Of a DNA stretch of 56,405 nt, positions 1,684 to 42,029 are shown piece after piece. The translations under genes and the position numbers were made by a program. A model generated the notes under the pieces. The model was not told the origin of the DNA, did not search any database, and saw only the letters and a list, made by a program, of their open reading frames with translations. The DNA is from a virus (taxonomy: Duplodnaviria > Caudoviricetes): the IMG/VR virus record IMGVR_UViG_3300048578_000331, positions 1 to 56,405 of that record; one strand, 5' to 3'. Each line of letters starts with the position of its first letter. Positions within the stretch are counted from its first letter, which is position 1.

Positions 1684-3680
1684 CCCGCCTTTCTTCTGTT
1701 CATGGTTTGCTGACCATTAAGGACGATGGACGAATATGACTGGATAAAAGCCTTCACATCATCCGTCATGTCCCGGTTTGAGTAACCCCGACATTGACGA
1801 ATTACATTGGTCTCTGGATTGACTTCCATCGTATAGAAACTTAGTGCAGGGTTTTCAGCTCTGCGAACAAAGAGAATCACCGTATCCCCGTTTATTACTC
1901 TGCTTGCATATGATCCAACGCAATGATGCAAGTGGTGGCCTTCGTTCACTATCTCCATAATGTGTTCAGGAACGATGACCATGAAGGCACCGGCCCTGTA
2001 GGTGTACTGCTTTTTCCTTAAAGCGTAGAGCTTCTTATAGGCTCCGTCCTGAATTGCTTTGACGTTGGCATTCTGCCTTTCCGCTGCCTGGTCATGAGTA
2101 ATCTGGACATGCCGCGGGAACGATACAAAAGGATTCGACAGGTCATATTTCTGCTGCTGGGCCATGCGTAGGTAGTCGATATACATTTCTTTGTCCAGCT
2201 TGTCCAGCCGTTTGTAATAGTCCAGGATCTTCCGCACTGTGAAGTGTTTACTTAGAGCGACCAGGTATTCAAAGGCAGAGCCCGTTTTGTGGAGTTCAAC
2301 TGCCTCCTGTAGAGAATCACAATGGCCATTCATGAAAAGCTTTTGAAAGCTGTCTAGGTATTCCGGGCCAAGGTTATGCTTTCGCATATAGTCAAAGTGC
2401 TGCTTTTCAATCAACAGCTGCTGATGCAACTTTTTCCCATCACCAACCTTGATTTTGCTGTTTTCGAGCATGGCAAGGGCCAGCTTATCCATGCCGATCT
2501 TCATCAAACTTTCGATCATGGGATAACTGAAAATCTGTCTCATAAGGTGGTTTACGGAATACCTTGACCCGTAATAACCCCGTTGCTTTTTCTGAAACGC
2601 TACCGTTTTATTTACGAATAGATATTCGAGAATTGTTCCGGAGAACACGCCTGGGAGATTGTTAAAATAGACTTCATCGGACAGGAAATAACCAGCATCA
2701 TTCGGCAGCTCCATCCACCTGGTTTCTGTTTTCTGGAATGCCTGTTCGTAAATATATGCCATGAGGAACTTGTTACTGGAATACATGTCACGGCCGTGTT
2801 CATTGATAATGAATGTCGGTTTCTTCGGGTCCCAATACCGTTTGGTAATTTCGTAATGCCTGGCAACAAGACCGCCTGTTGTGGTTTTCTGAATGATCGC
2901 GACTGTCGCCTGATCTGCCAAACTTCTCTTGATGATTCCTGAAGCTTTGTACTTTCCGTTGGCACCGCAGGATGGACAGATGCTATCGGAATTATGCTTT
3001 GGCTCGGTTTTGATTTCATGCACATGCTTGCACCTGGTGCAGTATGCGGTTCTTGGCTTATTGCCTTGCTTTGGCTCAAAGATCAGGAAGTTGAGTTTCA
3101 AGGCATCGTTGTCAACCCAACTCATGAAATCTGCCGGCAGCTCTGGCACCATGGCCATCTGCTCATCAATACGGTCACGAATCTTCTGCCGCTTGCCATC
3201 AAGTATGCTGTCCATAATCTTACGCTGATGATGGATGACGGAAAGGATGCCACCGTAATCACATTCCTTTCTTACGGATCGGTAATACTGACCTATGACT
3301 TCCTTGCTTTCGTCATCCCTGGGGATCAGGCATTTTTCTGTCTGGTATCCCCATATGCACTTGAGGTTGAAAACAGCACCGTCTACCCACTTGCTTTTAT
3401 AGCTGTAGCCGAAAACTTCCGGAGAGCAGACCTGCGTGATATACCTGTCCTTTGTGATGAAGACACGGTAAACCGGCTTTGCATCGCCGGCCTGGACGTC
3501 GATCTGCTTGTAGATGTGAATCAGCAGAAGCCTTTCTCCTTCTACTTCGTGGATATCGGCGAGATAGCAAAATTCCTTGTTCGTCTTGTCTCCATTCCAC
3601 CAGCCATGGTCTATTGTGCGCGGGTAATCGAACTGAGGACATAGCCTTTCCGGTATGGCTGCTAAAAGGGCCTTTTTCAT
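1680..3680 (-). CDS. PcfJ domain-containing protein
   Basis: C-terminal EIVNEGHHLHHCVGSY...ILFVRR...FYTMEV...QCRG signature; CxxC pairs in the N-terminal half. Confidence 0.85.
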   Translation of the reverse strand: MKKALLAAIPERLCPQFDYPRTIDHGWWNGDKTNKEFCYLADIHEVEGERLLLIHIYKQIDVQAGDAKPVYRVFITKDRYITQVCSPEVFGYSYKSKWVDGAVFNLKCIWGYQTEKCLIPRDDESKEVIGQYYRSVRKECDYGGILSVIHHQRKIMDSILDGKRQKIRDRIDEQMAMVPELPADFMSWVDNDALKLNFLIFEPKQGNKPRTAYCTRCKHVHEIKTEPKHNSDSICPSCGANGKYKASGIIKRSLADQATVAIIQKTTTGGLVARHYEITKRYWDPKKPTFIINEHGRDMYSSNKFLMAYIYEQAFQKTETRWMELPNDAGYFLSDEVYFNNLPGVFSGTILEYLFVNKTVAFQKKQRGYYGSRYSVNHLMRQIFSYPMIESLMKIGMDKLALAMLENSKIKVGDGKKLHQQLLIEKQHFDYMRKHNLGPEYLDSFQKLFMNGHCDSLQEAVELHKTGSAFEYLVALSKHFTVRKILDYYKRLDKLDKEMYIDYLRMAQQQKYDLSNPFVSFPRHVQITHDQAAERQNANVKAIQDGAYKKLYALRKKQYTYRAGAFMVIVPEHIMEIVNEGHHLHHCVGSYASRVINGDTVILFVRRAENPALSFYTMEVNPETNVIRQCRGYSNRDMTDDVKAFIQSYSSIVLNGQQTMNRRKAG

Positions 3681-4132
3681 TTTCCTGCACCCCCGAAGTG
3701 CAGATCAAAACCGATTTGCCCATCAACATATCCAGCTATCTTTTTAGTCGGAATGATAACTGGGACAGCTGCAGGAGCTTCAGTCTTTTTTGCAGCGATT
3801 TCAGCTTTCCGCTTTTCCTCTGCTTCCTTGGCTGCCTTCTTGCGGTCTGCCTCTTTTCTCGCTTCCTCTGCATCGTCAAGGGCGAGATATTCACGGACCC
3901 AGCCGTATACTGTGGATTCATCGATGCATGCACAGTTACCGCCATTAGCCTGTTCCCGGGCCTTTTTCGTTACAAAGTCCCATAGCCGTTCCAGAGACTT
4001 CGTTTCTTGCATGAACTGGGAGCGGAAAGCATCATCCGTAACGCCCTGCTCATAAATCCAATCAATGACCTGTTCCGGGCATTTCTTTGCCTTCGCCTTC
4101 TCAGCTGTAAGCTTTGCAACAAATTCCTCCAT
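3677..4132 (-). CDS. PcfK-like / AcrIIA9-family-like protein
   Basis: KSLERLWDFVTKKAREQANGGNCACIDESTVYGWVREY motif; overlaps the start of pcfJ-like gene; start set from RBS AGAAAGGGA. Confidence 0.7.
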   Translation of the reverse strand: MEEFVAKLTAEKAKAKKCPEQVIDWIYEQGVTDDAFRSQFMQETKSLERLWDFVTKKAREQANGGNCACIDESTVYGWVREYLALDDAEEARKEADRKKAAKEAEEKRKAEIAAKKTEAPAAVPVIIPTKKIAGYVDGQIGFDLHFGGAGK

Positions 4133-4138
4133 GGTGGT

Positions 4139-4172
4139 TCCCTTTCTGCCGGGCTTGGCCCCCCGGCTGGGC
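4139..4172 (-). promoter_or_regulatory. Repeated pseudoknot-RBS leader motif, copy A
   Basis: Minus strand GCCC-A-GCCGGG-GGGC-CAAG-CCCGGC-AGAAAGGGA. Confidence 0.7.
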
Positions 4173-4182
4173 GTGTCATGTT

Positions 4183-4395
4183 CTACCACGTTACCCGTTT
4201 GGGGACAAACTCAAGATTGTCATTCTTCACCCTGAAATCAGGTTCTCCCTCAAACTTATTGTTGCATTTAGCGCAGATTTCCGGATTAAATCCCTCCCGT
4301 GGATTGACATCAACACATAAGCTTCCGGCTGGGGTGGAATAAACGGGGCGATCGAAGCGATCATATCCCTTAAATGTAAGCACTAACTTTTTCAT
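4183..4395 (-). CDS. Small phage hypothetical protein (70 aa)
   Basis: RBS AGAAAGGA before MKKLVLTFKGYDRFDRPVY. Confidence 0.7.
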   Translation of the reverse strand: MKKLVLTFKGYDRFDRPVYSTPAGSLCVDVNPREGFNPEICAKCNNKFEGEPDFRVKNDNLEFVPKRVTW

Positions 4396-4399
4396 AGCG

Positions 4400-4434
4400 T
4401 CCTTTCTACGGCGGTTTGGTCCCCGCCGCTGGGC
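4400..4434 (-). promoter_or_regulatory. Repeated pseudoknot-RBS leader motif, copy B (first stem imperfect)
   Basis: GCCC-A-GCGGCGG-GGAC-CAAA-CCGCCGT-AGAAAGGA. Confidence 0.6.
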
Positions 4435-4439
4435 GTTCT

Positions 4440-4904
4440 TCATGATACGCAGGCGATCTTGTGGGTGGTGTGCTCCAGGCCATCAAAGGTACTTGTGAAT
4501 TTCACTTCCTGGGCCTCAAAACCGGGAAGCAATTCATACTCGCCGTTGCCCTTCAAGATGCTCTCAGCGATGTTGTAGGCATAAGCACATTCAAAATATT
4601 CGGATGACTTGCCGACGTTCTTCTGGTGGTCATATGTGCTGATGGGAACGCCACAGAACAACGATCCAAAATAGTCACCGGTGATGATTCCTTCCATCTT
4701 CACGGACGTTGGATAGCTTTTGATCTCATTCATGCACACGGAAGATCCATTATTGCGATCATATTCCCAATGGACTTCACCATAAAGGGGATACCGGCCG
4801 GCCATGATGGCTACGTCCTCAAACCACGCCGCACATTCGTAAGTGTTCCGGCCAACGAAATCTTCCTTGACGATCCTCCAGCCGATTTGAATGCGGTTTC
4901 CCAT
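4440..4904 (-). CDS. Hypothetical protein
   Basis: ORF with RBS AGAAAGGGG before MGNRIQIGW. Confidence 0.7.
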   Translation of the reverse strand: MGNRIQIGWRIVKEDFVGRNTYECAAWFEDVAIMAGRYPLYGEVHWEYDRNNGSSVCMNEIKSYPTSVKMEGIITGDYFGSLFCGVPISTYDHQKNVGKSSEYFECAYAYNIAESILKGNGEYELLPGFEAQEVKFTSTFDGLEHTTHKIACVS

Positions 4905-4910
4905 CTGAGA

Positions 4911-4946
4911 CCCCTTTCTGCCGGGGATTAGCCGCCCCGGCTCGGC
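4911..4946 (-). promoter_or_regulatory. Repeated pseudoknot-RBS leader motif, copy C (compensatory change in first stem)
   Basis: GCCG-A-GCCGGGG-CGGC-TAAT-CCCCGGC-AGAAAGGGG. Confidence 0.7.
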
Positions 4947-4951
4947 ATCGA

Positions 4952-5545
4952 TCAGCAATAGAAAGGTCGCAGCTGGTCATTCCAAACCTCGTAGTACCAG
5001 CGGCTTGTGTTGAACCTGATGTAATGGTAGTCAGTCGCGCAGTAGATGGGGCGGCGGTCGATCTTTGCGCCAGTTTTGCGGCACTGGTGATGACGGTTTG
5101 CCTCTTCTGCGTCGATCTCATGGATGATCGTTATTTTGCTTGGATCAAAATCAAATTCTGAGCAAATCCATTCGATGGCTTCCTCGTCGGTCATGTAATG
5201 AGCAGCGCCGGGAACGCTGCCAGCCAACCGTTGATATTCCGCTTGACTAACGTTGCGGTCGCTTTCGTAGGGCTTCCATTCTTGTTCCTGCTCAAGGGAG
5301 GCGGTGAGCTGTGTGATCTTCTGCTCAAGTTCCTTGATCTGTTGCCTATCCTTGATCTCCGCAGCATGCCGTCTCATGTCACAGCCCCTCTGAATGGTTT
5401 CGGCCATGCCATTTTTATTTGTTGCGTAAGCCTTGCAAAACGCAACCTTGTCGCCGTCGAAGTCCATATAGACTTCTTCAATAGCACTGTAAAGATCGCT
5501 GGTAGGGTAAAAACCGGTTAGTTGCTCGAATTCTTCTCTCATCAT
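4952..5545 (-). CDS. Phage hypothetical protein, first gene of the left accessory operon
   Basis: RBS CAGGAGGT before MMREEFEQLTG; coiled-coil middle segment. Confidence 0.75.
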   Translation of the reverse strand: MMREEFEQLTGFYPTSDLYSAIEEVYMDFDGDKVAFCKAYATNKNGMAETIQRGCDMRRHAAEIKDRQQIKELEQKITQLTASLEQEQEWKPYESDRNVSQAEYQRLAGSVPGAAHYMTDEEAIEWICSEFDFDPSKITIIHEIDAEEANRHHQCRKTGAKIDRRPIYCATDYHYIRFNTSRWYYEVWNDQLRPFYC

Positions 5546-5594
5546 TGCGGTGACCTCCTGATTGCAAAAGCGTAAGAAATTTTTGATTAACTTC

Positions 5595-5623
5595 ATTCTA
5601 CATTACGAAAAAGCAATTGTAAA
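5595..5623 (-). promoter_or_regulatory. Sigma-A-type promoter, copy 1, with overlapping inverted repeat
   Basis: TTTACA-17 bp-TAGAAT with AT-rich upstream tract; near-identical to 10273-10301. Confidence 0.75.
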
Positions 5624-5678
5624 GGGGAATCGTGTATTTTAACAAAATATTTTTATATAATAAACGGTATTAGTGAGC

Positions 5679-5707
5679 AAAACAAAAGCGCCTTTTTGCA
5701 GGCGCTT
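5679..5707 (-). terminator. Intrinsic terminator after the HTH gene
   Basis: AAGCGCCT/AGGCGCTT stem followed by T-tract on the minus strand. Confidence 0.7.
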
Positions 5708-5719
5708 CAATGTCGATTA

Positions 5720-6181
5720 TTAGAACATATGATCTGCGGAACCCTCTCCATAACGCTTGTATAGCCTCTTGGCGGCGTCTTTCCCGATTAGGCTGATGAA
5801 AGGTTTGGCTTCTTCCCATTCAGGGTAATGGACGGCAAAGAACCGCCCTTCTTTGTCTACATAAAGTTCGATGAACCAATCGTTCCATTTTTCAGTATGG
5901 CATAATGCATCGGCCTTTTCTGTGTCATAAATTACTCTGTCTACCATCTGCCGGAAGGAAGGCCCAATACCTTGGCGGCGTAGGGGAATGATACCGGTGG
6001 GCTTGATGTCAAGCTCATGACCAGTAGCGGACATAATGTTTTGCAGCTCCTCTGCTGAAAAGCTGTTACGGCTGAGCTTATTGGTAAAGTTCTGAGGGCT
6101 CATTCCGATAGCTGCAGCGACATCTTTTTTGTCCATGCCGCTGGCTGATATGGCCTTTTCAATTATTTCAACGGCATTCAT
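5720..6181 (-). CDS. XRE-family HTH protein with C-terminal domain of unknown function
   Basis: SGMDKKDVAAAIGMSPQNFTNKLSRNSF helix-turn-helix. Confidence 0.75.
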   Translation of the reverse strand: MNAVEIIEKAISASGMDKKDVAAAIGMSPQNFTNKLSRNSFSAEELQNIMSATGHELDIKPTGIIPLRRQGIGPSFRQMVDRVIYDTEKADALCHTEKWNDWFIELYVDKEGRFFAVHYPEWEEAKPFISLIGKDAAKRLYKRYGEGSADHMF

Positions 6182-6211
6182 TACTGAGCCCCCTTACAAG
6201 TTTTCCATATC

Positions 6212-6240
6212 ATTGTACCCGCATGCTGTTATGGAGTCAA
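6212..6240 (-). promoter_or_regulatory. Sigma-A-type promoter of the HTH gene
   Basis: TTGACT-17 bp-TACAAT about 30 nt upstream of the start. Confidence 0.65.
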
Positions 6241-6257
6241 CGTTTTGGTTCAATAGC

Positions 6258-6296
6258 AAAAGAGCCCGGCGCATACCAACATGCATGCGCCGGGCT
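6258..6296 (-). terminator. Intrinsic terminator ending the right accessory operon
   Basis: AGCCCGGCGCAT/ATGCGCCGGGCT stem then CTTTT. Confidence 0.75.
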
Positions 6297-6307
6297 GTAC
6301 TGGTGCT

Positions 6308-7375
6308 TCATGCGACTGCTGAATTGAGCTGATGCCATAGACGGTGATCCATGTTCAGGACTTCATAGCCGATGACTTCAAGCTCTGTCGCCCGGTCGTA
6401 GGACTTGATGTCTTGGCTTTGGCGGGTGACTGCATTGGCCAGGCCGTACAGTGACAAATCGCCTCCTCGGATCAAATGCTCCAGGACGCCATCACTCTCG
6501 GCCTTGCCAAGGTTGAATTCGTTTGCGGTCAGCTCTACGAAATCCGGAATGCTGGGCGCGTTGATCTTGGCGCCTTTGGCTTCCTTCATCTTCTGGACAA
6601 CCTTGTCGAATCGAATGTCATCCACCACCGCCCGTACGGTGTCTTGGAGCTTCATCAGGAAGGCCCTGTCATCAGCAATCAAGGTTTCGCTGCGGAACAG
6701 TTCATAGTTTTCATCTGCCTCGTTGATCCGGCCGACGTGGTTCCTGCGCGTGGCAGCGTCGTTCACCACCATGCCATTTGAGCAGACCAGGCGGAAGACA
6801 AGCGGCTGAACGCTTACCGCGCTGGCGCCCACTTCGCTGTTGGTGATGATGACGCCTGATTGCACAATATCGCCGGGGACGATCTCCCGTTCAAGGCGCG
6901 GGTTAACGACTTTGATATACAGGCGCTTGTCGGTGATCTCGCAGGATTCCACCCGCGCATCCTTGATCTCTCCCAGGACCGGAAGCACAGCTTCAGATAC
7001 GATGTCATTGTCAATAAGGCGATAGCGATCGGACAGGAAGGCGCGGGCATTGTTGTCCAGCGTGCGCACCAGGCGGGTGGTGGGCTTTTTGTTGAACCAG
7101 CCGTTCACGTTTGTGGCCAGCAGCTCCGGGTACTCGGCCATCATCGTGTCGTAATACTTGGCCGGGATGCCCAAGTGCGTCCCGATCTGCCTGTGTGCCA
7201 GCTCCTGCACCTGCATTGTGCCGATCATGGTTCCCTGCTTCATGATGTCCAGCACCTGCATGCCTTCGATCGCGTCCATATGCAGGTTACGGGTATCAAT
7301 CCGGAAGTCACGCTTTGCGGTCTTCTGCCGCTGGATCTCAATGGCGAGTTCTTGCAGGGTACGTCCAGTTTTCAT
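6308..7375 (-). CDS. DUF932/DUF945-family protein
   Basis: RAFLSDRYRLIDN, ITNSEVG...VFRLVCSNGMV and SLYGLANAVT motifs. Confidence 0.8.
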   Translation of the reverse strand: MKTGRTLQELAIEIQRQKTAKRDFRIDTRNLHMDAIEGMQVLDIMKQGTMIGTMQVQELAHRQIGTHLGIPAKYYDTMMAEYPELLATNVNGWFNKKPTTRLVRTLDNNARAFLSDRYRLIDNDIVSEAVLPVLGEIKDARVESCEITDKRLYIKVVNPRLEREIVPGDIVQSGVIITNSEVGASAVSVQPLVFRLVCSNGMVVNDAATRRNHVGRINEADENYELFRSETLIADDRAFLMKLQDTVRAVVDDIRFDKVVQKMKEAKGAKINAPSIPDFVELTANEFNLGKAESDGVLEHLIRGGDLSLYGLANAVTRQSQDIKSYDRATELEVIGYEVLNMDHRLWHQLNSAVA

Positions 7376-7379
7376 GGGT

Positions 7380-7406
7380 TCCTCACTTTCTCCGGCTGAA
7401 GCCGGA
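7380..7406 (-). promoter_or_regulatory. Hairpin-only variant of the leader motif (D)
   Basis: CCGGC-TTCA-GCCGG-AGAAAGTGAGGA directly before the DUF932 start. Confidence 0.4.
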
Positions 7407-7410
7407 ATCA

Positions 7411-7974
7411 TCATTTCTTGACCTCGGCAATGAGTTCGGGAATGCCGGCCAGTTTGGCAAGACGTTCTCCAAGCTGGGCAGTGGCCAGGCTTTGTACCTG
7501 AGAAGCAACCTTGTCGGTGATATCCTTGACGGTGCGTGTGATGGCGTCGCTGTACATAGGCTCACCGATCTTCTTGGCAAACCACGAAGCCCTAGACATC
7601 GTTTCTCGGGTGCTGTACCCGTCCGTTGGGTGACCGTCCCTGTCAACGTTCTGGGTCATGAAAGCTTCGCACGCTTGCTTGAGCATGTCATTGATGCACA
7701 CGTTCTTTTTGGTTACATCGCCCCATTTGTCGGTGATGTTCCTGGGTTCATTGAAGAAGGCTTCCATCTTGGCGTTGAGCTGATCGCCAATCACCATGGA
7801 CATTCCCTTCATCTTTTCATCCAGGAGAGCATCAACCTTTTGCTGCACAGATTTTTGAGCGGCTGCGCTGATACTGGAAACAACCTTCGCCGATATTTCA
7901 TCACGCAGCGCTTCATCGATTGAGCCGTCCTCGTTGAGGAAATCCAACTCGACTTCCACGGTAAACCTTGCCAT
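7411..7974 (-). CDS. Phage hypothetical helical protein
   Basis: RBS AGGAGGAG before MARFTVEVELD. Confidence 0.75.
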   Translation of the reverse strand: MARFTVEVELDFLNEDGSIDEALRDEISAKVVSSISAAAQKSVQQKVDALLDEKMKGMSMVIGDQLNAKMEAFFNEPRNITDKWGDVTKKNVCINDMLKQACEAFMTQNVDRDGHPTDGYSTRETMSRASWFAKKIGEPMYSDAITRTVKDITDKVASQVQSLATAQLGERLAKLAGIPELIAEVKK

Positions 7975-7984
7975 TTTGCTCCTC

Positions 7985-8176
7985 CTATTTAAGCTCGTAA
8001 TCATTTAGCTCTTTATCGGTCAGTTCACGACTATAAGTGACTTGACCCCAGGCCATGCGACCGATCTCTTTGACGTACTTCTTGTGACCATAGTCCTCAC
8101 ATTCAAGAAGTCCATCTTTGGGTTGACATCCTGGGCCTGGCGGACGTTCTAGCAGGTAGTAGACAAATGTATCCAG
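7985..8176 (-). CDS. DarA (defence-against-restriction) C-terminal-like microprotein, 63 aa, apparent CTG start; absent from the ORF track
   Basis: Manual translation (M)DTFVYYLLERPPGPGCQPKDG...AWGQVTYSRELTDKELNDYELK; AGGAGG 8 nt before CTG. Confidence 0.65.
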   Translation of the reverse strand: MDTFVYYLLERPPGPGCQPKDGLLECEDYGHKKYVKEIGRMAWGQVTYSRELTDKELNDYELK

Positions 8177-8548
8177 TTAAATCGCCTCCTTTTCTTCAGC
8201 GATGCTGCTTTCCACAGAAAGCCGATCAGCAATCAGCGCAATGAACTCCCCATTGGTGGGCTTGCGTCGCTTGGAAACAACCTGGCAGCCAAAAGCCGTG
8301 TTCAGGGCTTCGATATCGCCTTTGGTCCAGGCATACAGGATGGCATGCCGGATACCGCGTTCAACTTTGCCCGCGGTGGTGTTGTGCTTCAGGGCAACGC
8401 CGGGATAAAGCTCTTTTGTGATCTTGTCGATGGTCTCAGGTTTCTCTATGACCATCTTCACAGCATCCTGGATGAAGCGGTAACCTTTGATGCTGGCAGG
8501 CATTCCAGTGTTCAGGAGAATGGTAGACAGACGAGCAGACTGGTTCAT
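8177..8548 (-). CDS. Spo0A C-terminal DNA-binding domain protein without a receiver domain
   Basis: GMPASIKGY...ITKELYP...TTAGKVERGIRHAI...KPTNGEFIALIADRL closely matches the Spo0A effector domain. Confidence 0.92.
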   Translation of the reverse strand: MNQSARLSTILLNTGMPASIKGYRFIQDAVKMVIEKPETIDKITKELYPGVALKHNTTAGKVERGIRHAILYAWTKGDIEALNTAFGCQVVSKRRKPTNGEFIALIADRLSVESSIAEEKEAI

Positions 8549-8554
8549 ATGGTA

Positions 8555-8587
8555 TCCCTTTCTCCCCGTAGGCCCGATGGGACAGGC
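8555..8587 (-). promoter_or_regulatory. Repeated pseudoknot-RBS leader motif, copy E (degenerate)
   Basis: GCCT-G-TCCCATC-GGGC-CTAC-GGGG-AGAAAGGGA. Confidence 0.5.
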
Positions 8588-8612
8588 AGCTTATTGGTGT
8601 TGACCTGGCATC

Positions 8613-8888
8613 TTACCTACCAGAAAAACGCGGCAGGAAAAGACCTTCGACCTTACCGGTTCTGCGGTTCATACAATTCTGAATGCCGCAGAAGTCATGC
8701 GAAAAATTAAAGTTATCTGCAGCCAGCCAATCGTCAAGCCTCATGTCGAATTGATCAAAAGCCTTTTCGATGTCTATGAACTGGGTGCATTGGCTTCCTT
8801 GTGCTATGCCCATGGACTGCGCCCGCTTGACGATCTTGAGAATGGTATCCATGTGATCGCGTTTCGGGGCTTGAACTTGATTTTCCAC
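8613..8888 (-). CDS. Small phage protein (DUF6874-like), GTG start
   Basis: MRLDDWLAADNFNFSHDFCGI...FLPRFS motif; RBS GAAAGGAG. Confidence 0.65.
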   Translation of the reverse strand: MENQVQAPKRDHMDTILKIVKRAQSMGIAQGSQCTQFIDIEKAFDQFDMRLDDWLAADNFNFSHDFCGIQNCMNRRTGKVEGLFLPRFSGR

Positions 8889-8904
8889 GATGATTCTCCT
8901 TTCT

Positions 8905-9072
8905 TTATCGGCAGGGCATGCAGATGACGTGCTTGCCCTCAACCCGCAAAACAAACAGATTGAGATACCCGACATGGACTGGGCACTTGAGAACATCCCC
9001 GCTGCGCGGCATGTGGAAGATGCTCTTCACAAAGGAACCATCCAGCATAACTTTGTAGGCAGTGCGAGACAT
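8905..9072 (-). CDS. 55-aa hypothetical protein, absent from the ORF track
   Basis: Manual translation MSRTAYKVMLDGSFVKSIF...VICMPCR; RBS AAAGAGGA; fills the gap in the operon. Confidence 0.55.
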   Translation of the reverse strand: MSRTAYKVMLDGSFVKSIFHMPRSGDVLKCPVHVGYLNLFVLRVEGKHVICMPCR

Positions 9073-9088
9073 GGGGGAATCCTCCTTT

Positions 9089-9604
9089 CTATCTACGGAG
9101 AGCGGCCAGAATGCTTGGCATTGTTTCCGCTTCGTTCTCTTCCTCGAAATAACACCCGCTTTCGCTGACCTGCACAGCCTTTACGGTATGAACTTCACTT
9201 GTGCCGGCGTTGCTGTCGATCACAAGGATGGCACAGCGATCGCTTTCGTTGATAACGGGAGCGTTTGCATATTGCGCAAACTCAACATAATCGCTTAATC
9301 TTTCCTCGAAAGTTACACAAACGCAATTTGCGGACAAATAGAACCAGTCGCCTTGGCCGTTCCTTTGGTCAACGCTCCGACTGCTGGTAACCCTTCCAAG
9401 ACTGCAATTGTGCATCATGAGGCCATACCGCCTGGTGCTTATGGCTATCCTTGCCTTGCCTTGTTCACGGCTATAGGGATAATCAACGATGAAATCACTG
9501 CTTCCAATGATCCGTTTGTTTGCACCTGTGGCATCGAACATCATCACCTTGCGATTATCCAGGTTGATAGCCACCGCCTTGTGTTGCCGATTCGTAAGAT
9601 TCAT
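9089..9604 (-). CDS. Hypothetical protein
   Basis: ORF with RBS AGAAAGGA. Confidence 0.65.
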   Translation of the reverse strand: MNLTNRQHKAVAINLDNRKVMMFDATGANKRIIGSSDFIVDYPYSREQGKARIAISTRRYGLMMHNCSLGRVTSSRSVDQRNGQGDWFYLSANCVCVTFEERLSDYVEFAQYANAPVINESDRCAILVIDSNAGTSEVHTVKAVQVSESGCYFEEENEAETMPSILAALRR

Positions 9605-9610
9605 AGCTGA

Positions 9611-9644
9611 TCCTTTCTGCCGTGCTTAGCCCCACGGCTGGGCT
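9611..9644 (-). promoter_or_regulatory. Repeated pseudoknot-RBS leader motif, copy F
   Basis: AGCCC-A-GCCGTG-GGGCT-AAG-CACGGC-AGAAAGGA. Confidence 0.7.
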
Positions 9645-9648
9645 GCTG

Positions 9649-9951
9649 TTAAAGCGTCCAGTTATGCCCTACGGCGTTTGCAAGGTTTGATGCAAGGGTG
9701 GTGATTTCATCAACGATGGCTGAAAACCGGACATAATCTTCGAATTGGTGCAAGGCGCGGTTTTTCGTGCTCTGGTCTGCGTTTTCAGCTGAGAGAATAG
9801 CCATAAGGTTACTTTGCAGGCAGCATGAGGTTTGGCCGGTTACTTCCTTGGCCATCTCCTGAAGCTCATTGAATGCATGGTCTCTTGAATCTTTGCACGC
9901 ATCGTATTGAGAAGTGGTCTTTTTTACGGCATCGTGTTCTTTGGCTGTCAT
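9649..9951 (-). CDS. Hypothetical protein
   Basis: ORF with RBS AGAAAGGGA. Confidence 0.65.
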   Translation of the reverse strand: MTAKEHDAVKKTTSQYDACKDSRDHAFNELQEMAKEVTGQTSCCLQSNLMAILSAENADQSTKNRALHQFEDYVRFSAIVDEITTLASNLANAVGHNWTL

Positions 9952-9957
9952 CGGATA

Positions 9958-9994
9958 TCCCTTTCTCCCGGTCTTTCGCCCGGCCGGGAGGGCG
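9958..9994 (-). promoter_or_regulatory. Repeated pseudoknot-RBS leader motif, copy G
   Basis: CGCCC-T-CCCGG-CC-GGGCG-AAAGA-CCGGG-AGAAAGGGA. Confidence 0.65.
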
Positions 9995-9999
9995 TATCA

Positions 10000-10224
10000 T
10001 TAAGCGTTGATGATTTGCTTGGCCAACTTGTACTGAGCCTCTGCCACTTCGTAATTGGCCTTCGCTTTCTTGGCCTGTTCCGCTTGAGCAATTACGCTTT
10101 CCATGTCGTTGATGCCGGCGTATTGGGTTGTGGTCTTTACGGTATTCAGAGCCGTTTCCATCTTGGATTTCGCATCCACCAATTGGGCTTCCAGACTTGC
10201 AAGGATCATTTCGTTCTTCGTCAT
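10000..10224 (-). CDS. Small coiled-coil protein, first gene of the right accessory operon
   Basis: RBS GGAGGG; Ala/Lys/Glu-rich helical sequence. Confidence 0.7.
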   Translation of the reverse strand: MTKNEMILASLEAQLVDAKSKMETALNTVKTTTQYAGINDMESVIAQAEQAKKAKANYEVAEAQYKLAKQIINA

Positions 10225-10272
10225 CTTTTCAACCCTCCGATTACTAATATGTAAGTTTTATTAACTATTATC

Positions 10273-10301
10273 ATTCTACATTACGAAATAGTAATTGTAA
10301 A
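10273..10301 (-). promoter_or_regulatory. Sigma-A-type promoter, copy 2
   Basis: TTTACA-17 bp-TAGAAT; near-identical to 5595-5623. Confidence 0.75.
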
Positions 10302-10343
10302 GGGGTTTTGTGTATTATATAAAAATAATATTGAGAAATAAAC

Positions 10344-10375
10344 AAAAAGCAGAGTGGCTAAGTCACTCTGCTTTT
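10344..10375. terminator. Intrinsic terminator, possibly bidirectional
   Basis: AAAAGCAGAGTGG...TCACTCTGCTTTT inverted repeat. Confidence 0.75.
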
Positions 10376-10392
10376 AAGAAGCGATTTGTGTT

Positions 10393-10548
10393 TTAAGTGC
10401 ACGAAGGACAAGGGACCTTTCCACTACCGCCGCAATGTGTGCAAGTCTCATCTGTGGTTAAATCTGTTCCTGTTCCTGCGCATCTTGAACAATTAAGCTC
10501 ACCAGTGCCATGACAACGTCCGCAAATATCATTTGTTGAGTCAGCCAT
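10393..10548 (-). CDS. 51-aa DnaJ-like CxxCxGxG zinc-finger microprotein (moron); absent from the ORF track
   Basis: MADSTNDICGRCHGTGELNCSRCAGTG...CTHCGGSGKVPCPSCT; RBS GAAAGGAG. Confidence 0.75.
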   Translation of the reverse strand: MADSTNDICGRCHGTGELNCSRCAGTGTDLTTDETCTHCGGSGKVPCPSCT

Positions 10549-19456: not shown

Positions 19457-22400
19457 TGCCGTTTCGCCTCCTTGCATCTGCCGTCTTTTTTGCTTGCTTC
19501 CTGCTGATGACTGGCTCAAGGATCGTACCAGCCTTCTCACCGTCGATATTGGCTGCAATCTCAGGTGCCCTGTTCCATATGGCATCTGCAAGCTTGTCAT
19601 AGTCGATCAAGTCTTTGTCGCTGGTATCATCGACGATCTCATAGACGCTTGTGAGTTTGTCATCCCGGCCTGCAGTCAGGTCTTTGCTCTTATCAGAGAC
19701 CGTGGCCTTGACATCTGCCATGATGTCGGTATTTTCTGCTGCCTTGCCGATTCGCCTCATGGCCTTTTGAACATCGTCTTCTGTGGCTTCGATACCTACA
19801 GCGACGCCCAGGCCCATGGGCTTACCAATGACATCACGCAAGAGCTTGGAAGGGGATGCAATGCCGAGGGTCTTTTTTATCCCGCCGACGATGCCGGAGA
19901 AGAACTTCTTTGCTTTGCTGGCGAAGGTTTCTCGCTTGTCTTCCATGCCCTGCATGGCACCTTCGACCATGTTGCCACCGATACCGGCAAGCAACGTAGA
20001 TGGGCTGTGGATACCAAGGAAATCCTTTATGCCTCCGACGATCCCATCAAAGAAGTTCTTTACCTTCTCGCCGATCCAGGAGGCAAGGCTTGTGATGCCT
20101 TCCCATAACCCTTGAACCAATTGAGCACCGACATCGAATAACCCGACAGTAGCTTTGCCGATCCCTTCAAGGATCGCTGTCACGATCTCCGGAAGGCGTT
20201 CCACAAGAACAGGTATAGCTTCGATCAGACCGCCAGCCAAAGCGACGATAAGATCAACGCCAGCCGTGACAATCGTGGGAAGGTTATCGGTAAAGAACGT
20301 AACCAGGGCATCTATGATTTGGGGAAGTGCATCGACTATGGCATCTATGATCTCTGGCAATGCACCGACTAATGCCGTAAGGAGCGTAATACCTGCATCG
20401 ACGATCTGCGGAACCGATTCCGTAAGCGCCGCTGTGATGGCTGAAAGGATTTGCGGCAGCGCGGCAACGATTGTGCTTATAATTTGCGGAAGGGCCGAAA
20501 CCAGCGCAGTCAAAAGCGTGATGCCCGCCTGCACTATGGTCGGCAGGTTATCTGTGAGGAATCCAACGATAGCCTGGATGATGCCTGGCAGAGCGGCGAC
20601 CAGCGTTTCTATGACAACAGGCAGTGCTTCCACCAGGGCATTGAAAAGCTGAACCGCTGCCTCAAGAAGCAGCGGTAGGCTTTCCGTAAGGAAAAGGGTT
20701 ATGGTATTGATGATCTGCGGCAAGGCGGCCAATAGGGCTTCCATGATGGCCGGGAATGCATCTACAATGGCCATCAGGAACGTTATGGCTGCCTGTATGA
20801 GCACTGGGGTCTGCGTAGTGAGGAAATCAAGTATCGCCTGTATGATGGTCGGAAGCAGCTCCAGGAGCATCGGCAGCGCGTTAAGGATGCCTTGCAGCAA
20901 AGCCATCAGCAGCCCGACGCCGGCTTCAACGATCGCCGGAAGCGCTATGGTCAGCGCCTCAACAATTGCGGTGATGATCTGCGGAAGCGCAGTGACCAAC
21001 AGGTCTATTACCGTGGGAAGCGCGTCGACGATTGCCATCAAAAGTGAAACGCCTGCCTGTATCACAACGGGAAGGTTTTCAGTGATGACGGTGACTATCG
21101 CGTCTATGATTGACGGAAGCGCTTCTACCAGAGCGGCGATCACTGTGGGCAGCGCGTTCACGATCGCCATCCAGAACGATATGGCGTTACGGGCCAGTGC
21201 CGGGACGTTCTTTGTGAAGAACGCTGTGATGGACTGAATGAGCGCGGGTAGTACGGCCCTGATCGAATCCAGTACAGCCGGGAGCGCATCTACAAGCGCC
21301 TGAAAAAGCTCCACTGCCGCAGAAGTTATAGCATTCTGCGAATCAAGCAAAAATGTTGTGATGCTGCTTATAAGCGAAGGAAGGGCTACAAGAAGCTGCC
21401 GGACGATTCCGGGGATTGCCTTCACGATTCCGCTAAGTAGTGTTGCTGCCGACTTTGCAAGCTCCGGCCCCTTATCAGTCAGGAATTCCACAATTCCGGC
21501 TATAATTTCTGGCAGCGCATCTACGATAATAGGCAGCGCCGCCATTAACCCATAAGCGATTGAGTTTATGAGGCTCATTCCAGCGTCGAACAGGGCAGGA
21601 AGCGCATCGACAAAGGATTGAGCAAGGCCTACTATGAAAGTTGCCACCTGTGGAAGAAGCAAAGGCATTTTGGTTGTAATGCCGTAAGCAAGTTGTGTGA
21701 TAAGGTCTATGCCGCCTTGGAGTATCAGTGGCAGAACGGTCATGATGCCATTGACAAGGAGCGATCCTACTTCTACCAGAGCACCAGATATGGCCGGCAT
21801 GTTTTTTGTCAAGCCTTGAATGAGGCTTGATATTACGCTGATGCCCGCGCTTATTACAGTCGGTGCAAACGTGGTGATCTTTGTAACGATCTGCGAAAGG
21901 ACATCACCTATAGCTGACGCAAGCCCTGCAAAGCCCCCCTCCTGGAATGCCTTTGCAAGCTGGCCCAGCATGCCCGTTCCTTCTTGAACGATGCTCCTTA
22001 GGGGCTCTTGGACATTTTCATAGAACATAATCCCCAAGTCTTCCAATGCAGACTTGAGCAGTTCTATATCGCCCTTCAGGTTGTCTTGCATGGTGGCGGC
22101 CATGGCTTGCGCCGCGCCGTCAGCATTGTTCATAGCCTCAACAAGCGTATTAAAATCTGCATCGCTTGAGTTCGCAATGGCAAGCAGGCCGGCCATGGCC
22201 TCCTGGCCACCAAGCATTGCGGCGTAGGTTGCTCTCTGCTTTTCGTTAAGCTTACTAAAGCCCTGGCGCATATCGCCCATTATCTCAACAAAGGGCTTCA
22301 TATGTCCCTTTGAATCGGTCAGGCTTATGCCCAGCTTTTTCATGGCAGCTGCGCTTTCCTTCGTGGGCTTCGCCATTCTGGTAAGAGTAGTGCGCAGCGC

Positions 22401-29089: not shown

Positions 29090-29111
29090 AATTGTATCTC
29101 CCTTCGAATTA

Positions 29112-29200
29112 CGCTTTTTTGTACGTGGTCAGCGCCACGTTCGGCACGGTTCTTTTACGTCTGCCGGGCCAAAGACATATTCAACGGCCAACACGGCCGA
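29112..29200 (-). ncRNA. Structured leader with two tandem pseudoknots upstream of the scaffold gene (GP20-motif-like cis element)
   Basis: ATGTCT/AGACGT with loop pairing to CCGTGCCGA; ACGTGG/CCACGT with loop CGCT pairing to AGCG. Confidence 0.55.
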
Positions 29201-41238: not shown

Positions 41239-41664
41239 CTAGTCTGTGTAGGCAATGTACTCGAACTCGCCGTTTCCGAAATTTGTGAACCTTCCCCCGA
41301 ACGTGCCTTTGACAACCTTTTCAACATCTTCGCGCGACATGCCAGACGGATATACTCCGTACTTTATCATCGAAAATCCTGTGTGTGATTTCGTCCGATA
41401 GTCAACTTTGGTTTTATCAAACGGCCTTGGCGCATATTCACGCATCAGTAGACCTGGGGCAACGCATACATCTTTAAATTTTGGAGGGTCATCCTCATAC
41501 CCGCAGCTTTGACATGTCAGCTTTTTGTCTGTGCAAGCAGAACAGGGCGGATTGATGTGGCATATACAATTTTTTGTTGCTGGCCAATCCATTTTACCGT
41601 GATGACAAACAGGGCATGAATCCCCTTCCTCAAGAAAGGCGTCGTTTATCATATGTTCAGTCAT
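41239..41664 (-). CDS. Cys-rich hypothetical protein
   Basis: CPVC, CICHINPPCSAC, GTFGGRF. Confidence 0.7.
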   Translation of the reverse strand: MTEHMINDAFLEEGDSCPVCHHGKMDWPATKNCICHINPPCSACTDKKLTCQSCGYEDDPPKFKDVCVAPGLLMREYAPRPFDKTKVDYRTKSHTGFSMIKYGVYPSGMSREDVEKVVKGTFGGRFTNFGNGEFEYIAYTD

Positions 41665-42029
41665 GGGGCCTCCTTGCCGCTACCGCGGCAGTCTGGGCAT
41701 GGCGTGTTGTAATCGTTAGGGTCTGATCTGCCGCCGTGGCATGTATGGCAAGGTTCAATCTTACGGCCGCATCCTGGGCAGTAATCACCATCATAGGGGT
41801 TAATCAAGTCGTTCCCACATTTATCGCAGGACAGATCTCCCAAATCAGAAACAAGAACATGGCAGAAATTATTCTCTTCCTCATCCAGGAGGCGAAGGAT
41901 TTCATCAGCAAGTTTGTCAGCTTGGTCCATATAAACCTTTTTGGGGTAATGGGTGTTATTTCGCAGGCCCATGGCTGTCTTGATATTCTCCGCCGCCGTC
42001 CTGATCGCCGCTGCCGTCTTTTCATTCAT
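41661..42029 (-). CDS. Zinc-finger hypothetical protein
   Basis: CDKC/CPGC/CHTC/CPDCRGSG. Confidence 0.65.
   Translation of the reverse strand: MNEKTAAAIRTAAENIKTAMGLRNNTHYPKKVYMDQADKLADEILRLLDEEENNFCHVLVSDLGDLSCDKCGNDLINPYDGDYCPGCGRKIEPCHTCHGGRSDPNDYNTPCPDCRGSGKEAP

Follow-up and report, generated by a model that had tools for sequence, protein, structure and literature searches.

Repeated cis-acting linkers between the accessory genes of phages are already known. The element described here is repeated in front of small genes in a complete Caudoviricetes record (IMG/VR IMGVR_UViG_3300048578_000331, a single contig of 56,405 bp, analysed over its whole length and called the window below) and is predicted to fold as a pseudoknot; what would be new about it, if it holds, is a stacking mechanism for the recruitment of ribosomes. 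The SAS and ESAS of Cluster K mycobacteriophages, in the parts of the report available (PMC3203893), are like it in being repeated in one orientation, in containing or adjoining the ribosome-binding site (RBS) just before start codons, and in lying only in the non-structural half of the genome, before genes of different families; an inverted repeat with a variable spacer precedes about half of the copies, and the authors draw attention to base pairing with the 16S rRNA 3′ end, giving the function as unknown. Unlike the window element, the SAS is defined by a conserved 13-nt sequence, and the ESAS has sequence-conserved arms of 17 bp, no pseudoknot described in those parts, and actinobacterial hosts (PMC3203893). 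The 13-nt SAS consensus gave 13 matches in the window at up to three mismatches, against 13.5 expected, none of them at a start site of the region, and the likeness is one of behaviour, not of family membership.

The PeSLs of T4-type phages, as described in the available portion of PMC2839356, resemble the element as small repeated stem-loop units between small non-essential open reading frames (ORFs) in plastic regions, where they mark points of gene shuffling; each PeSL, however, combines an early promoter of the sigma-70 type with a terminator stem-loop, whereas the window elements are intra-operonic, have neither, and are pseudoknots joined to a Shine-Dalgarno sequence (SD). The layout of an intrinsic terminator (hairpin plus T run) is likewise absent from the elements, which are followed by purine runs. 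In Firmicutes, stem-loops for selective RNA processing and stabilisation are described for the cip-cel operon of Ruminiclostridium (PMC10311766) and for cggR-gapA and glnRA of B. subtilis (bioRxiv 10.1101/2023.03.12.532304), and as far as the available text of both sources goes they are like the element in being G+C-rich, in occupying intergenic gaps of operons, and in belonging to the same bacterial class as its hosts. Such stem-loops protect processed ends and determine the stoichiometry of cistrons: a 5′ hairpin shields the cggR/gapA cleavage product from RNase J1 (bioRxiv 10.1101/2023.03.12.532304), and GC-rich intergenic stem-loops determine transcript stability in a Clostridia operon (PMC10311766). 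Unlike our element they are, in what these sources describe, single hairpins, locus-unique, non-mobile, unknotted, and without a fixed register to the SD.

Classical H-type pseudoknots (recoding sites, and the operators of rpsO/S15 and T4 gene 32) have a 1-nt loop over a stem of 6-7 bp and an A-rich loop over the short stem. The window element shares their topology and dimensions, and also their position, 5-10 nt after a decoding site or beside an RBS. It differs from recoding knots in having no slippery site or in-frame extension, and from the rpsO/S15 and T4 gene 32 operators in that it occurs in many copies before unrelated genes and is not the operator of a single gene.

Predicted fold of the repeated element

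Six copies lie in the window, all read 5′ to 3′ on the minus strand and named below by their 5′ coordinate (Table 1). To search for them we used a covariance model, R1, seeded with stem 2 and flanks of 13 foreign copies and two window copies (4946 and 4434); it encodes stem 2 and its flanks, including the SD, and does not encode stem 1. Run on the whole window with filters off, R1 scored the two seeds at 59 bits (4946) and 43.6 bits (4434), and among the non-seed copies it scored 4172 at 38 bits (E 2e-7), 9644 at 29 bits (E 3.5e-5) and 9994 at 17.4 bits (E 0.028), with 8587 at noise level. The whole 56-kb genome held no further copy (next-best match 12.4 bits, E 0.49), so that the replication, packaging and structural modules lack the motif. 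Of the six copies, then, five are good and one is degenerate, and every one lies in an accessory operon.

Relatives were collected from IMG/VR with one pattern constrained only at the two ends of stem 2 and at the SD (AGAAAGG; at least 119 loci), with a second fixing only the 5′ half and leaving the downstream sequence free (at least 119 more), and with two narrower patterns (9 and 26 loci). AGAAAGG was fixed in the stem-2-ends scan, in a scan of prokaryote species described below, and in the 9-locus pattern, and three stem-1 pairs were fixed in the 5′-half and 26-locus patterns; the spacer-composition counts and register statistics given below come from the 5′-half loci, among the matches listed. 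By these pattern scans the same layout occurs in more than 230 viral-contig loci, and of the 110 distinct matches listed from the 5′-half scan, 99 also had the GGC that completes stem 2 on its 3′ side. Applied to the same loci, R1 gave 39 distinct further copies that fit none of the patterns, with very different stem-2 sequences (e.g., CCCCGCC/GGCGGGG, GCGGCG/CGCCGC and GCCCCAG/CTGGGGC); under a parse that maximised stem 1, these paired at four of four stem-1 positions in 21 copies and at three of four in 10. A generic pseudoknot descriptor used alone was rejected as unspecific, giving 383 matches in real loci and 123 in shuffled ones; in the window it returned three true copies along with three matches in coding regions.

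The element is 25-28 nt long, with a stem 1 of 4 bp (arms S1a and S1b), a single-base loop L1 that is usually A, a G+C-rich stem 2 of 6-7 bp (arms S2a and S2b), no junction base, and an A/T-rich loop L3 of 3-6 nt. In the parsed matches independent of the patterns, stem 2 had 6 or 7 bp in 28 of 37, and L3 was mostly of 4 nt. Pair counts were made on two R1-derived alignments (48 and 128 distinct rows) with the knot annotated, R1 itself being blind to stem 1. Stem-1 cells were paired in 93% of cases in the smaller alignment and 98% in the larger, stem-2 cells in 100% and 99%; none of 500 shuffles matched the observed pairing on any measure in either alignment, and sliding the 3′ partner by 1-3 columns lowered pairing to 28-56% in the 128-row alignment and to 18-56% over both. 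Stem 2 shows double changes at six of its seven pairs. The outer pair of stem 1 in the 128-row alignment was GC in 51 rows, AU in 33, CG in 9, GU in 6 and unpaired in 8, the sequences behind these counts being phylogenetically non-independent; an independent count on 5′-anchored matches (n = 108) gave GC 43, AT 31, CG 15, GT 6, AC 4 and other 9. The next position outward does not covary, which makes stem 1 exactly 4 bp.

Stem 1 also changes in a coordinated way between subtypes. When S1a was fixed as GCCC, the window type, all six matches with a hairpin carried GGGC (five) or GGCT (one, in which S1a is shifted to AGCC), and the majority arm CGGC appeared in none of the six; the inner pair of stem 1 is thus flipped from G-C to C-G in the GCCC subtype. 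Rarer forms are TCCC/GGGA, GCTG/CAGC, CCCG/CGGG, GGC/GCC, GGG/CCC, TTG/CAA and GTA/TAC, while the middle two pairs vary rarely. Few unpaired bases are conserved: the A of L1, an L3 that is typically TAAT, CAAT or ATAT, and an A after the knot. In H-type knots a loop of about 1-2 nt spans a stem 2 of 6-7 bp and one of at least 3 nt spans a stem 1 of 4-5 bp, and the loops of the element (1 nt for L1, mostly 4 nt for L3) fit this geometry. The reading as an interleaved H-type pseudoknot, with arms in the order S1a-S2a-S1b-S2b, is supported by these sequence comparisons. Where the initial annotation had proposed that fold from the six window copies, covariation across many independent relatives now backs it.

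Register with the 16S rRNA tail and position between genes

As 16S rRNA genes were not found in five metagenome-assembled genomes (MAGs) of hosts, four genomes of the same family as one host were used instead. Their 16S genes end GGATCACCTCC-TTTCTA, so that AGAAAGG complements the last seven bases (CCTTTCT) before the final A. We defined the offset as the distance from the last base of the knot to the mRNA base whose predicted partner is the last U of the 16S tail, and took register statistics only from 5′-half-pattern loci, where the downstream sequence is unconstrained. The offset was 0 in 28 of 73 junctions; its immediate neighbours were nearly empty (two at -1, one at +1), with 13 of the 73 at -4 to -1, 24 at +1 to +6, and eight at +10 or more. 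In the 22 cases where the SD abuts the knot (21 of them gapless), 20 SDs begin with the first A of AGAAAGGAGG, and only four of the 22 reach GGAG, versus 22 of 27 SDs separated from the knot by more than 1 nt. An A directly follows the knot in 90 of the 108 elements. All six window copies have zero offset, and their SDs lack the GGAGG core; knot-free GAAAGG sites before start codons in the window continue with AG in 8 of 16 (a count made from the listing), and the window holds 20 instances of AGAAAGG where 8.5 are expected. In a smaller replicate with another stem 2, most intact copies again have a purine run starting immediately behind the knot. Fusion of the knot to the RBS, as initially described, therefore stands for all six window copies, but family-wide for only those 28 junctions, about four in ten.

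The elements sit between genes and always on the coding strand. Sense ORFs flank 72 of 104 elements on both sides, with antisense ORFs at 13 of the 104, and a same-strand upstream ORF of at least 60 codons precedes 80 of 96 distinct elements, the gap from its stop codon to stem 1 being 5-10 nt in 59 of these 80 (in the window 4, 5, 5, 6, 10 and 27 nt). A terminating ribosome covers about 5-10 nt past the stop codon, and the knot may sit as near to the stop as it can without being unwound. In the A/C-rich spacer between stop and knot, 85 of 108 elements have an A two positions ahead of stem 1, and a longer upstream word, of the type TGACCGACAC(G/A), recurs in many copies. Downstream, 75 of the 96 elements have a start codon with its SD no more than 80 nt away. 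The genes behind the knot are short and unrelated: 143 proteins fell into 120 clusters with a median of 82 aa, and of ten representatives six had no PHROG, three belonged to PHROGs of unknown function, and one was an enzyme of the 'moron' class. Members of phrog_31748 stand behind a knot in two otherwise different phages (window 4183-4395 (-) and L125:11389-11628 (-)).

A docking reading and its rivals

From these comparisons we tentatively favour, at somewhat less than an even chance, the reading that the element is a portable intercistronic module that docks ribosomes and protects mRNA for small accessory genes. On this reading the knot would supply the small gene downstream with a ready-made ribosome-docking site of its own: the 3′ tail of the 30S subunit would pair with AGAAAGG, and the SD/anti-SD helix would stack end-on upon stem 2, so that stem 1, stem 2 and the SD helix form one long stack, reinforcing a weak 'tail-type' SD, while the fold would keep the G+C-rich neighbouring sequence away from the SD and so insulate it. 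The rigid fold and the ribosome bound next to it could block exonucleases in both the 5′-to-3′ and the 3′-to-5′ direction, which would make each gene a separately stable and translatable unit; and because the module is self-contained and shared, genes behind a knot would be swappable between phages. Possible, if on the doubtful side, is the bolder claim that this is a new type of ribosome-docking element, in which the knot ends at the base that pairs with the 16S tail and SD/anti-SD stacking replaces the missing GGAGG core, so that one adaptor serves as translation enhancer, nuclease block and cassette boundary, and lets phages of Clostridia plug in and swap small genes.

Several points weigh against the favoured reading. 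Stem 1 is short, and two of its four pairs hardly vary, partly since the search patterns fixed them; G-U and A-C mismatches (20 versus 13) show no strand asymmetry; and RNAfold, which is unable to model knots, pairs the upstream CCC with the GGG of the SD in window copies. We rejected this last pairing as a conserved feature because S1a varies (ACCG, CCCG, GGC, TTG and others) and the SD does not, and we likewise rejected a competing mini-hairpin between the start of S2a and S1b, which cannot account for the A-U and C-G outer pairs. Further, offset 0 is found in just 38% of the unbiased junctions, 13 of the 73 being negative and 32 positive, and the peak could stem partly from knot and SD being inherited as one repeat unit. 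No start codon lies within 80 nt of 21 of the 96 elements; together with offset 0 being in the minority, this means that the knot must also work without an abutting SD. Finally, the gene sequence does not give the mature 3′ end of the host rRNA, and stacking on the 16S terminus is purely something we infer.

One rival remains strong and is compatible with the docking module: that the element is mainly one of mRNA processing and stability, in which an RNase Y-like cut would fall in the A/C-rich spacer, the knot would cap the downstream 5′ end against RNase J and the upstream 3′ end against 3′ exonucleases, cistrons would accumulate in unequal amounts, and contact with the SD would be secondary. 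The 5-10 nt gap after the stop, the spacer composition with its conserved A two bases before stem 1, and the elements without an abutting SD all suit it; so does the combination of free sequence and kept structure, as expected of a steric block. A Type-P5 twister ribozyme (L085:2588-2647 (+), 52 bits, E 8.6e-8), lying between knots at 2216-2253 and 3898-3935 of that locus, which belongs to an uncultured phage, suggests that such operons are cut between genes, and there are precedents in what is available of PMC10311766 and bioRxiv 10.1101/2023.03.12.532304. In all known cases, however, a plain hairpin is enough, which leaves stem 1 unaccounted for, as are the exact zero-offset register with the 16S tail and the loss of the GGAGG core, and as the principal role we consider it somewhat unlikely.

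Another view, which we hold to be improbable, is that the main role lies in recombination, as a linker: a G+C-rich repeat common to gene boundaries would provide short homology for swapping cassettes of knot, RBS and ORF, its RNA fold being incidental or reflecting a structure of single-stranded DNA. Neighbour comparisons are suggestive of exchange here. Of 52 pairs that have the upstream protein in common (19 families, the pairs being non-independent), ten keep only the 5′ neighbour and none only the neighbour across the knot, with 14 keeping both and 28 neither; one upstream gene end is joined to five downstream sequences and one downstream sequence to three upstream ones, the downstream genes fall into the many clusters noted above, copies are grouped in arrays of small ORFs, and the PeSLs of T4-type phages, as far as PMC2839356 is available, set a precedent. 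In a mosaic comparison at the nucleotide level (18 pairs), breaks fell at the knot side in seven and at the other side in four, with no clear excess at either. Homologous exchange needs identity and not compensatory change, though, whereas both stems covary and stem 2 differs wholly between copies, and an interleaved stem 1 is useless in duplex DNA. Exchange at the element is likely a consequence of the shared repeat, not its selected function.

Of the functions offered in the initial annotation (translation enhancer or protein-binding site, barrier to RNase J, or recombination landmark), the data favour a ribosome-linked role, and the protein-neighbour comparison gives suggestive support to the idea of a cassette boundary; on a barrier to RNase J they speak neither for nor against.

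The knot might instead serve as an operator bound by a trans-acting regulator (a small RNA, or a protein of phage or host), which would block or trap the 30S subunit and in this way co-regulate early or accessory genes. The pseudoknot operators of rpsO/S15 and T4 gene 32 are translational operators of this kind, and the several copies per phage, confined here to two operons, the adjoining SD and the few conserved unpaired bases could all be read in this way. Those bases nonetheless offer very little for specific recognition, hundreds of otherwise unrelated phages carry the element, and no shared candidate binding protein turned up, though none was systematically searched for; we think an operator quite improbable, and an operator acting at the DNA level is disfavoured because sequence is free while pairing is kept.

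It is more improbable still that only the hairpin of stem 2 forms in vivo and that the apparent covariation of stem 1 reflects subfamily descent. The shortness of stem 1 (4 bp), its two nearly invariant pairs and the existence of hairpin-only relatives (as at 7406-7391) would agree with this, but not the four pair types of the outer pair across different loops and neighbours, the flip of the inner pair in the GCCC subtype, the exotic forms TTG/CAA, GTA/TAC and TCCC/GGGA, or loop lengths that suit knot geometry. A recoding signal, by which a pseudoknot 5-10 nt past the stop would stimulate read-through or frameshifting in the style of retroviral gag-pol, has spacing and knot dimensions in its favour but is hardly credible, as the three possible downstream frames relative to the upstream ORF are evenly used (22/20/24, n = 66), stop codons are TAA in 44, TGA in 21 and TAG in 1, copy 9994 follows a double stop (TAA TGA), and each knot is followed by an SD and start codon of its own.

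If fold and register of the favoured docking module are functional, the element would represent a widespread RNA family absent from all catalogues, within the least understood part of gut and rumen phages, their small accessory genes. It would then give a simple, testable rule for recruiting Firmicute ribosomes through structure plus a weak 'tail-type' SD, and it suggests a means by which phages keep freely swapped genes expressible. Those designing operons for Clostridia and Bacilli might use it as a compact insulator, and its covariance model can help annotators to mark where short genes, often overlooked by gene callers, begin.

Source phage, window copies and relatives

The Spo0A_C gene of the window (Table 1) encodes the receiver-less, DNA-binding C-terminal domain alone (Pfam Spo0A_C, 3e-36); the only Rfam family found in the genome is the GP20-b RNA (RF03003), at 38.7 bits and above the gathering score; and window genes carry extended SDs of the GAAAGGAG type. 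This combination points to a phage of spore-forming Clostridia. The pseudoknot copies lie in two leftward operons, headed by near-identical promoter-like sites that read TTTACA-17-TAGAAT. Within them the copies stand strictly between genes, the first gene after each of these two promoters having no pseudoknot, and no promoter-like or terminator-like site was found at any of the six window copies.

Table 1. Copies of the element and other features of the window; parts are given in the 5′ to 3′ order of the strand
Feature	Position	Strand	Layout	Parts	Context
Copy 4172	4139-4172	-	GCCC-A-GCCGGG-GGGC-CAAG-CCCGGC, then AGAAAGGGA	S1a 4172-4169; L1 A 4168; S2a 4167-4162; S1b 4161-4158; L3 4157-4154; S2b 4153-4148; SD AGAAAGGGA 4147-4139	ATG at 4132; precedes 151-aa gene (3677-4132)
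Copy 4434	4400-4434	-	GCCC-A-GCGGCGG-GGAC-CAAA-CCGCCGT, then AGAAAGGA	S1a 4434-4431; L1 4430; S2a 4429-4423; S1b GGAC 4422-4419; L3 4418-4415; S2b 4414-4408; SD 4407-4400	ATG at 4395; precedes 70-aa gene (4183-4395, phrog_31748)
Copy 4946	4911-4946	-	GCCG-A-GCCGGGG-CGGC-TAAT-CCCCGGC, then AGAAAGGGG	S1a GCCG 4946-4943; L1 4942; S2a 4941-4935; S1b CGGC 4934-4931; L3 TAAT 4930-4927; S2b 4926-4920; SD 4919-4911	ATG at 4904; precedes 154-aa gene (4440-4904)
Copy 8587	8555-8587	-	GCCT-G-TCCC-ATC-GGGC-CTACG-GGGA	S1a GCCT 8587-8584; S2a TCCC 8582-8579; junction ATC; S1b GGGC 8575-8572; S2b GGGA 8566-8563; SD 8563-8555	precedes Spo0A_C gene (8177-8548)
Copy 9644	9611-9644	-	AGCCC-A-GCCGTG-GGGCT-AAG-CACGGC, then AGAAAGGA	S1a AGCCC 9644-9640; L1 9639; S2a GCCGTG 9638-9633; S1b GGGCT 9632-9628; L3 AAG 9627-9625; S2b CACGGC 9624-9619; SD 9618-9611	ATG at 9604; precedes 171-aa gene (9089-9604)
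Copy 9994	9958-9993	-	GCCC-T-CCCGG-CC-GGGC-GAAAGA-CCGGG, then AGAAAGGGA	S1a GCCC 9993-9990; L1 T 9989; S2a CCCGG 9988-9984; junction CC; S1b GGGC 9981-9978; L3 GAAAGA 9977-9972; S2b CCGGG 9971-9967; SD 9966-9958	ATG at 9951; precedes 100-aa gene (9649-9951)
Hairpin-only relative	7381-7406	-	TCCGGC-TTCA-GCCGGA, then GAAAGTGAGG; without stem 1	hairpin 7406-7391	before DUF932
Promoter-like site	5595-5623	-	10/12 matches		heads operon with copies 4946, 4434 and 4172
Promoter-like site (near-identical twin)	10273-10301	-	10/12 matches		heads operon with copies 9994, 9644 and 8587
Third promoter-like site	6212-6240	-			heads stand-alone helix-turn-helix (HTH) gene between both operons
Terminator-like hairpins	6296-6263 and 5708-5685				with the separate HTH gene, divide the two operons
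Spo0A_C gene	8177-8548	-			behind copy 8587
GP20-b RNA	29110-29170	-			
Plain G+C-rich hairpins	41650-41680 and ~22180-22210	-	without stem 1		outside accessory region; abut core-type SDs

The initial annotation had described a shared layout at six minus-strand gaps, and all six copies are present, that at 8555-8587 being degenerate (R1 8 bits, E 5.6): its stem 2 has just 4 bp, its junction 3 nt, the last A of S2b is shared with the SD, and RNAfold favours another fold. Copies 4434 and 9644 had been called imperfect; this is right for 4434, with three of four stem-1 pairs (one mismatch) and one G-U pair in stem 2, and wrong for 9644, which is perfect, the most imperfect copy being 8587. Copy 4946 is of the majority family type, its core identical in L013, L041 and L073, and copy 4172 has a near-identical counterpart in locus L281. 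Copy 9994 is a variant with a 2-nt junction, and the same variant recurs at L163:929-968 with one change in L3. The hairpin-only variant reported before DUF932 is indeed there, although R1 does not find it, and the statement that the motif is missing from replication and structural modules agrees with the whole-genome R1 search, which gave nothing there. The plain hairpins listed last in Table 1 stand before ORFs in the manner of TGCCGC-GGTA-GCGGCA followed by AGGAGG.

The novelty check that had been proposed bore the element out as new to Rfam. At the gathering score none of the 4227 models of Rfam 15 matched at the window elements, and at E up to 10 the region 3900-10400 gave five chance snoRNA-like matches, none at an element; at the same threshold a locus with 3-4 copies (L128) gave one such match, away from the copies, and in ten further loci the gathering score returned only the Twister-P5 in L085, away from elements. 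We found no description of the element in the literature searched, including the available portions of 10.64898/2026.09.22.753630, 10.64898/2026.10.21.760802, PMC8040213 and PMC5737381, although it may be listed, undiscussed, in the supplements of PMC8040213 (3161 candidate gut RNAs) and PMC5737381.

In prokaryotes, scanned with a single genome for each species, 41 loci were found, mainly in gut and rumen MAGs, labelled mostly as Oscillospiraceae, Ruminococcaceae, Lachnospiraceae, Acutalibacteraceae or plain Clostridia; a few matches in other phyla may be chance or binning errors. The element is common to hundreds of phages of gut and rumen Clostridia, widespread and uncatalogued. Complete phage records hold 1-3 copies each, grouped among small ORFs, which makes the six of the window many. 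Relatives of the DUF932 protein at 44-55% identity (loci L001-L003) had no element by two hairpin detectors or by R1, and the motif is therefore not tied to the DUF932 gene. Among GenBank phages, blastn with the whole region matched only two unannotated fragments, at DUF932, and with a 49-nt family member it matched only Dulem virus 34, within a gap that carries no annotation.

Six loci (L123, L124, L140, L166, L203 and L228) carry an apparently different conserved element that shares the same 5′ half. It has conserved flanks of its own (upstream ...GAGTAGG, downstream ...GACTGCGGGAGCGG), no nearby RBS, and G+C-richer contigs around it, and may be another structured RNA.

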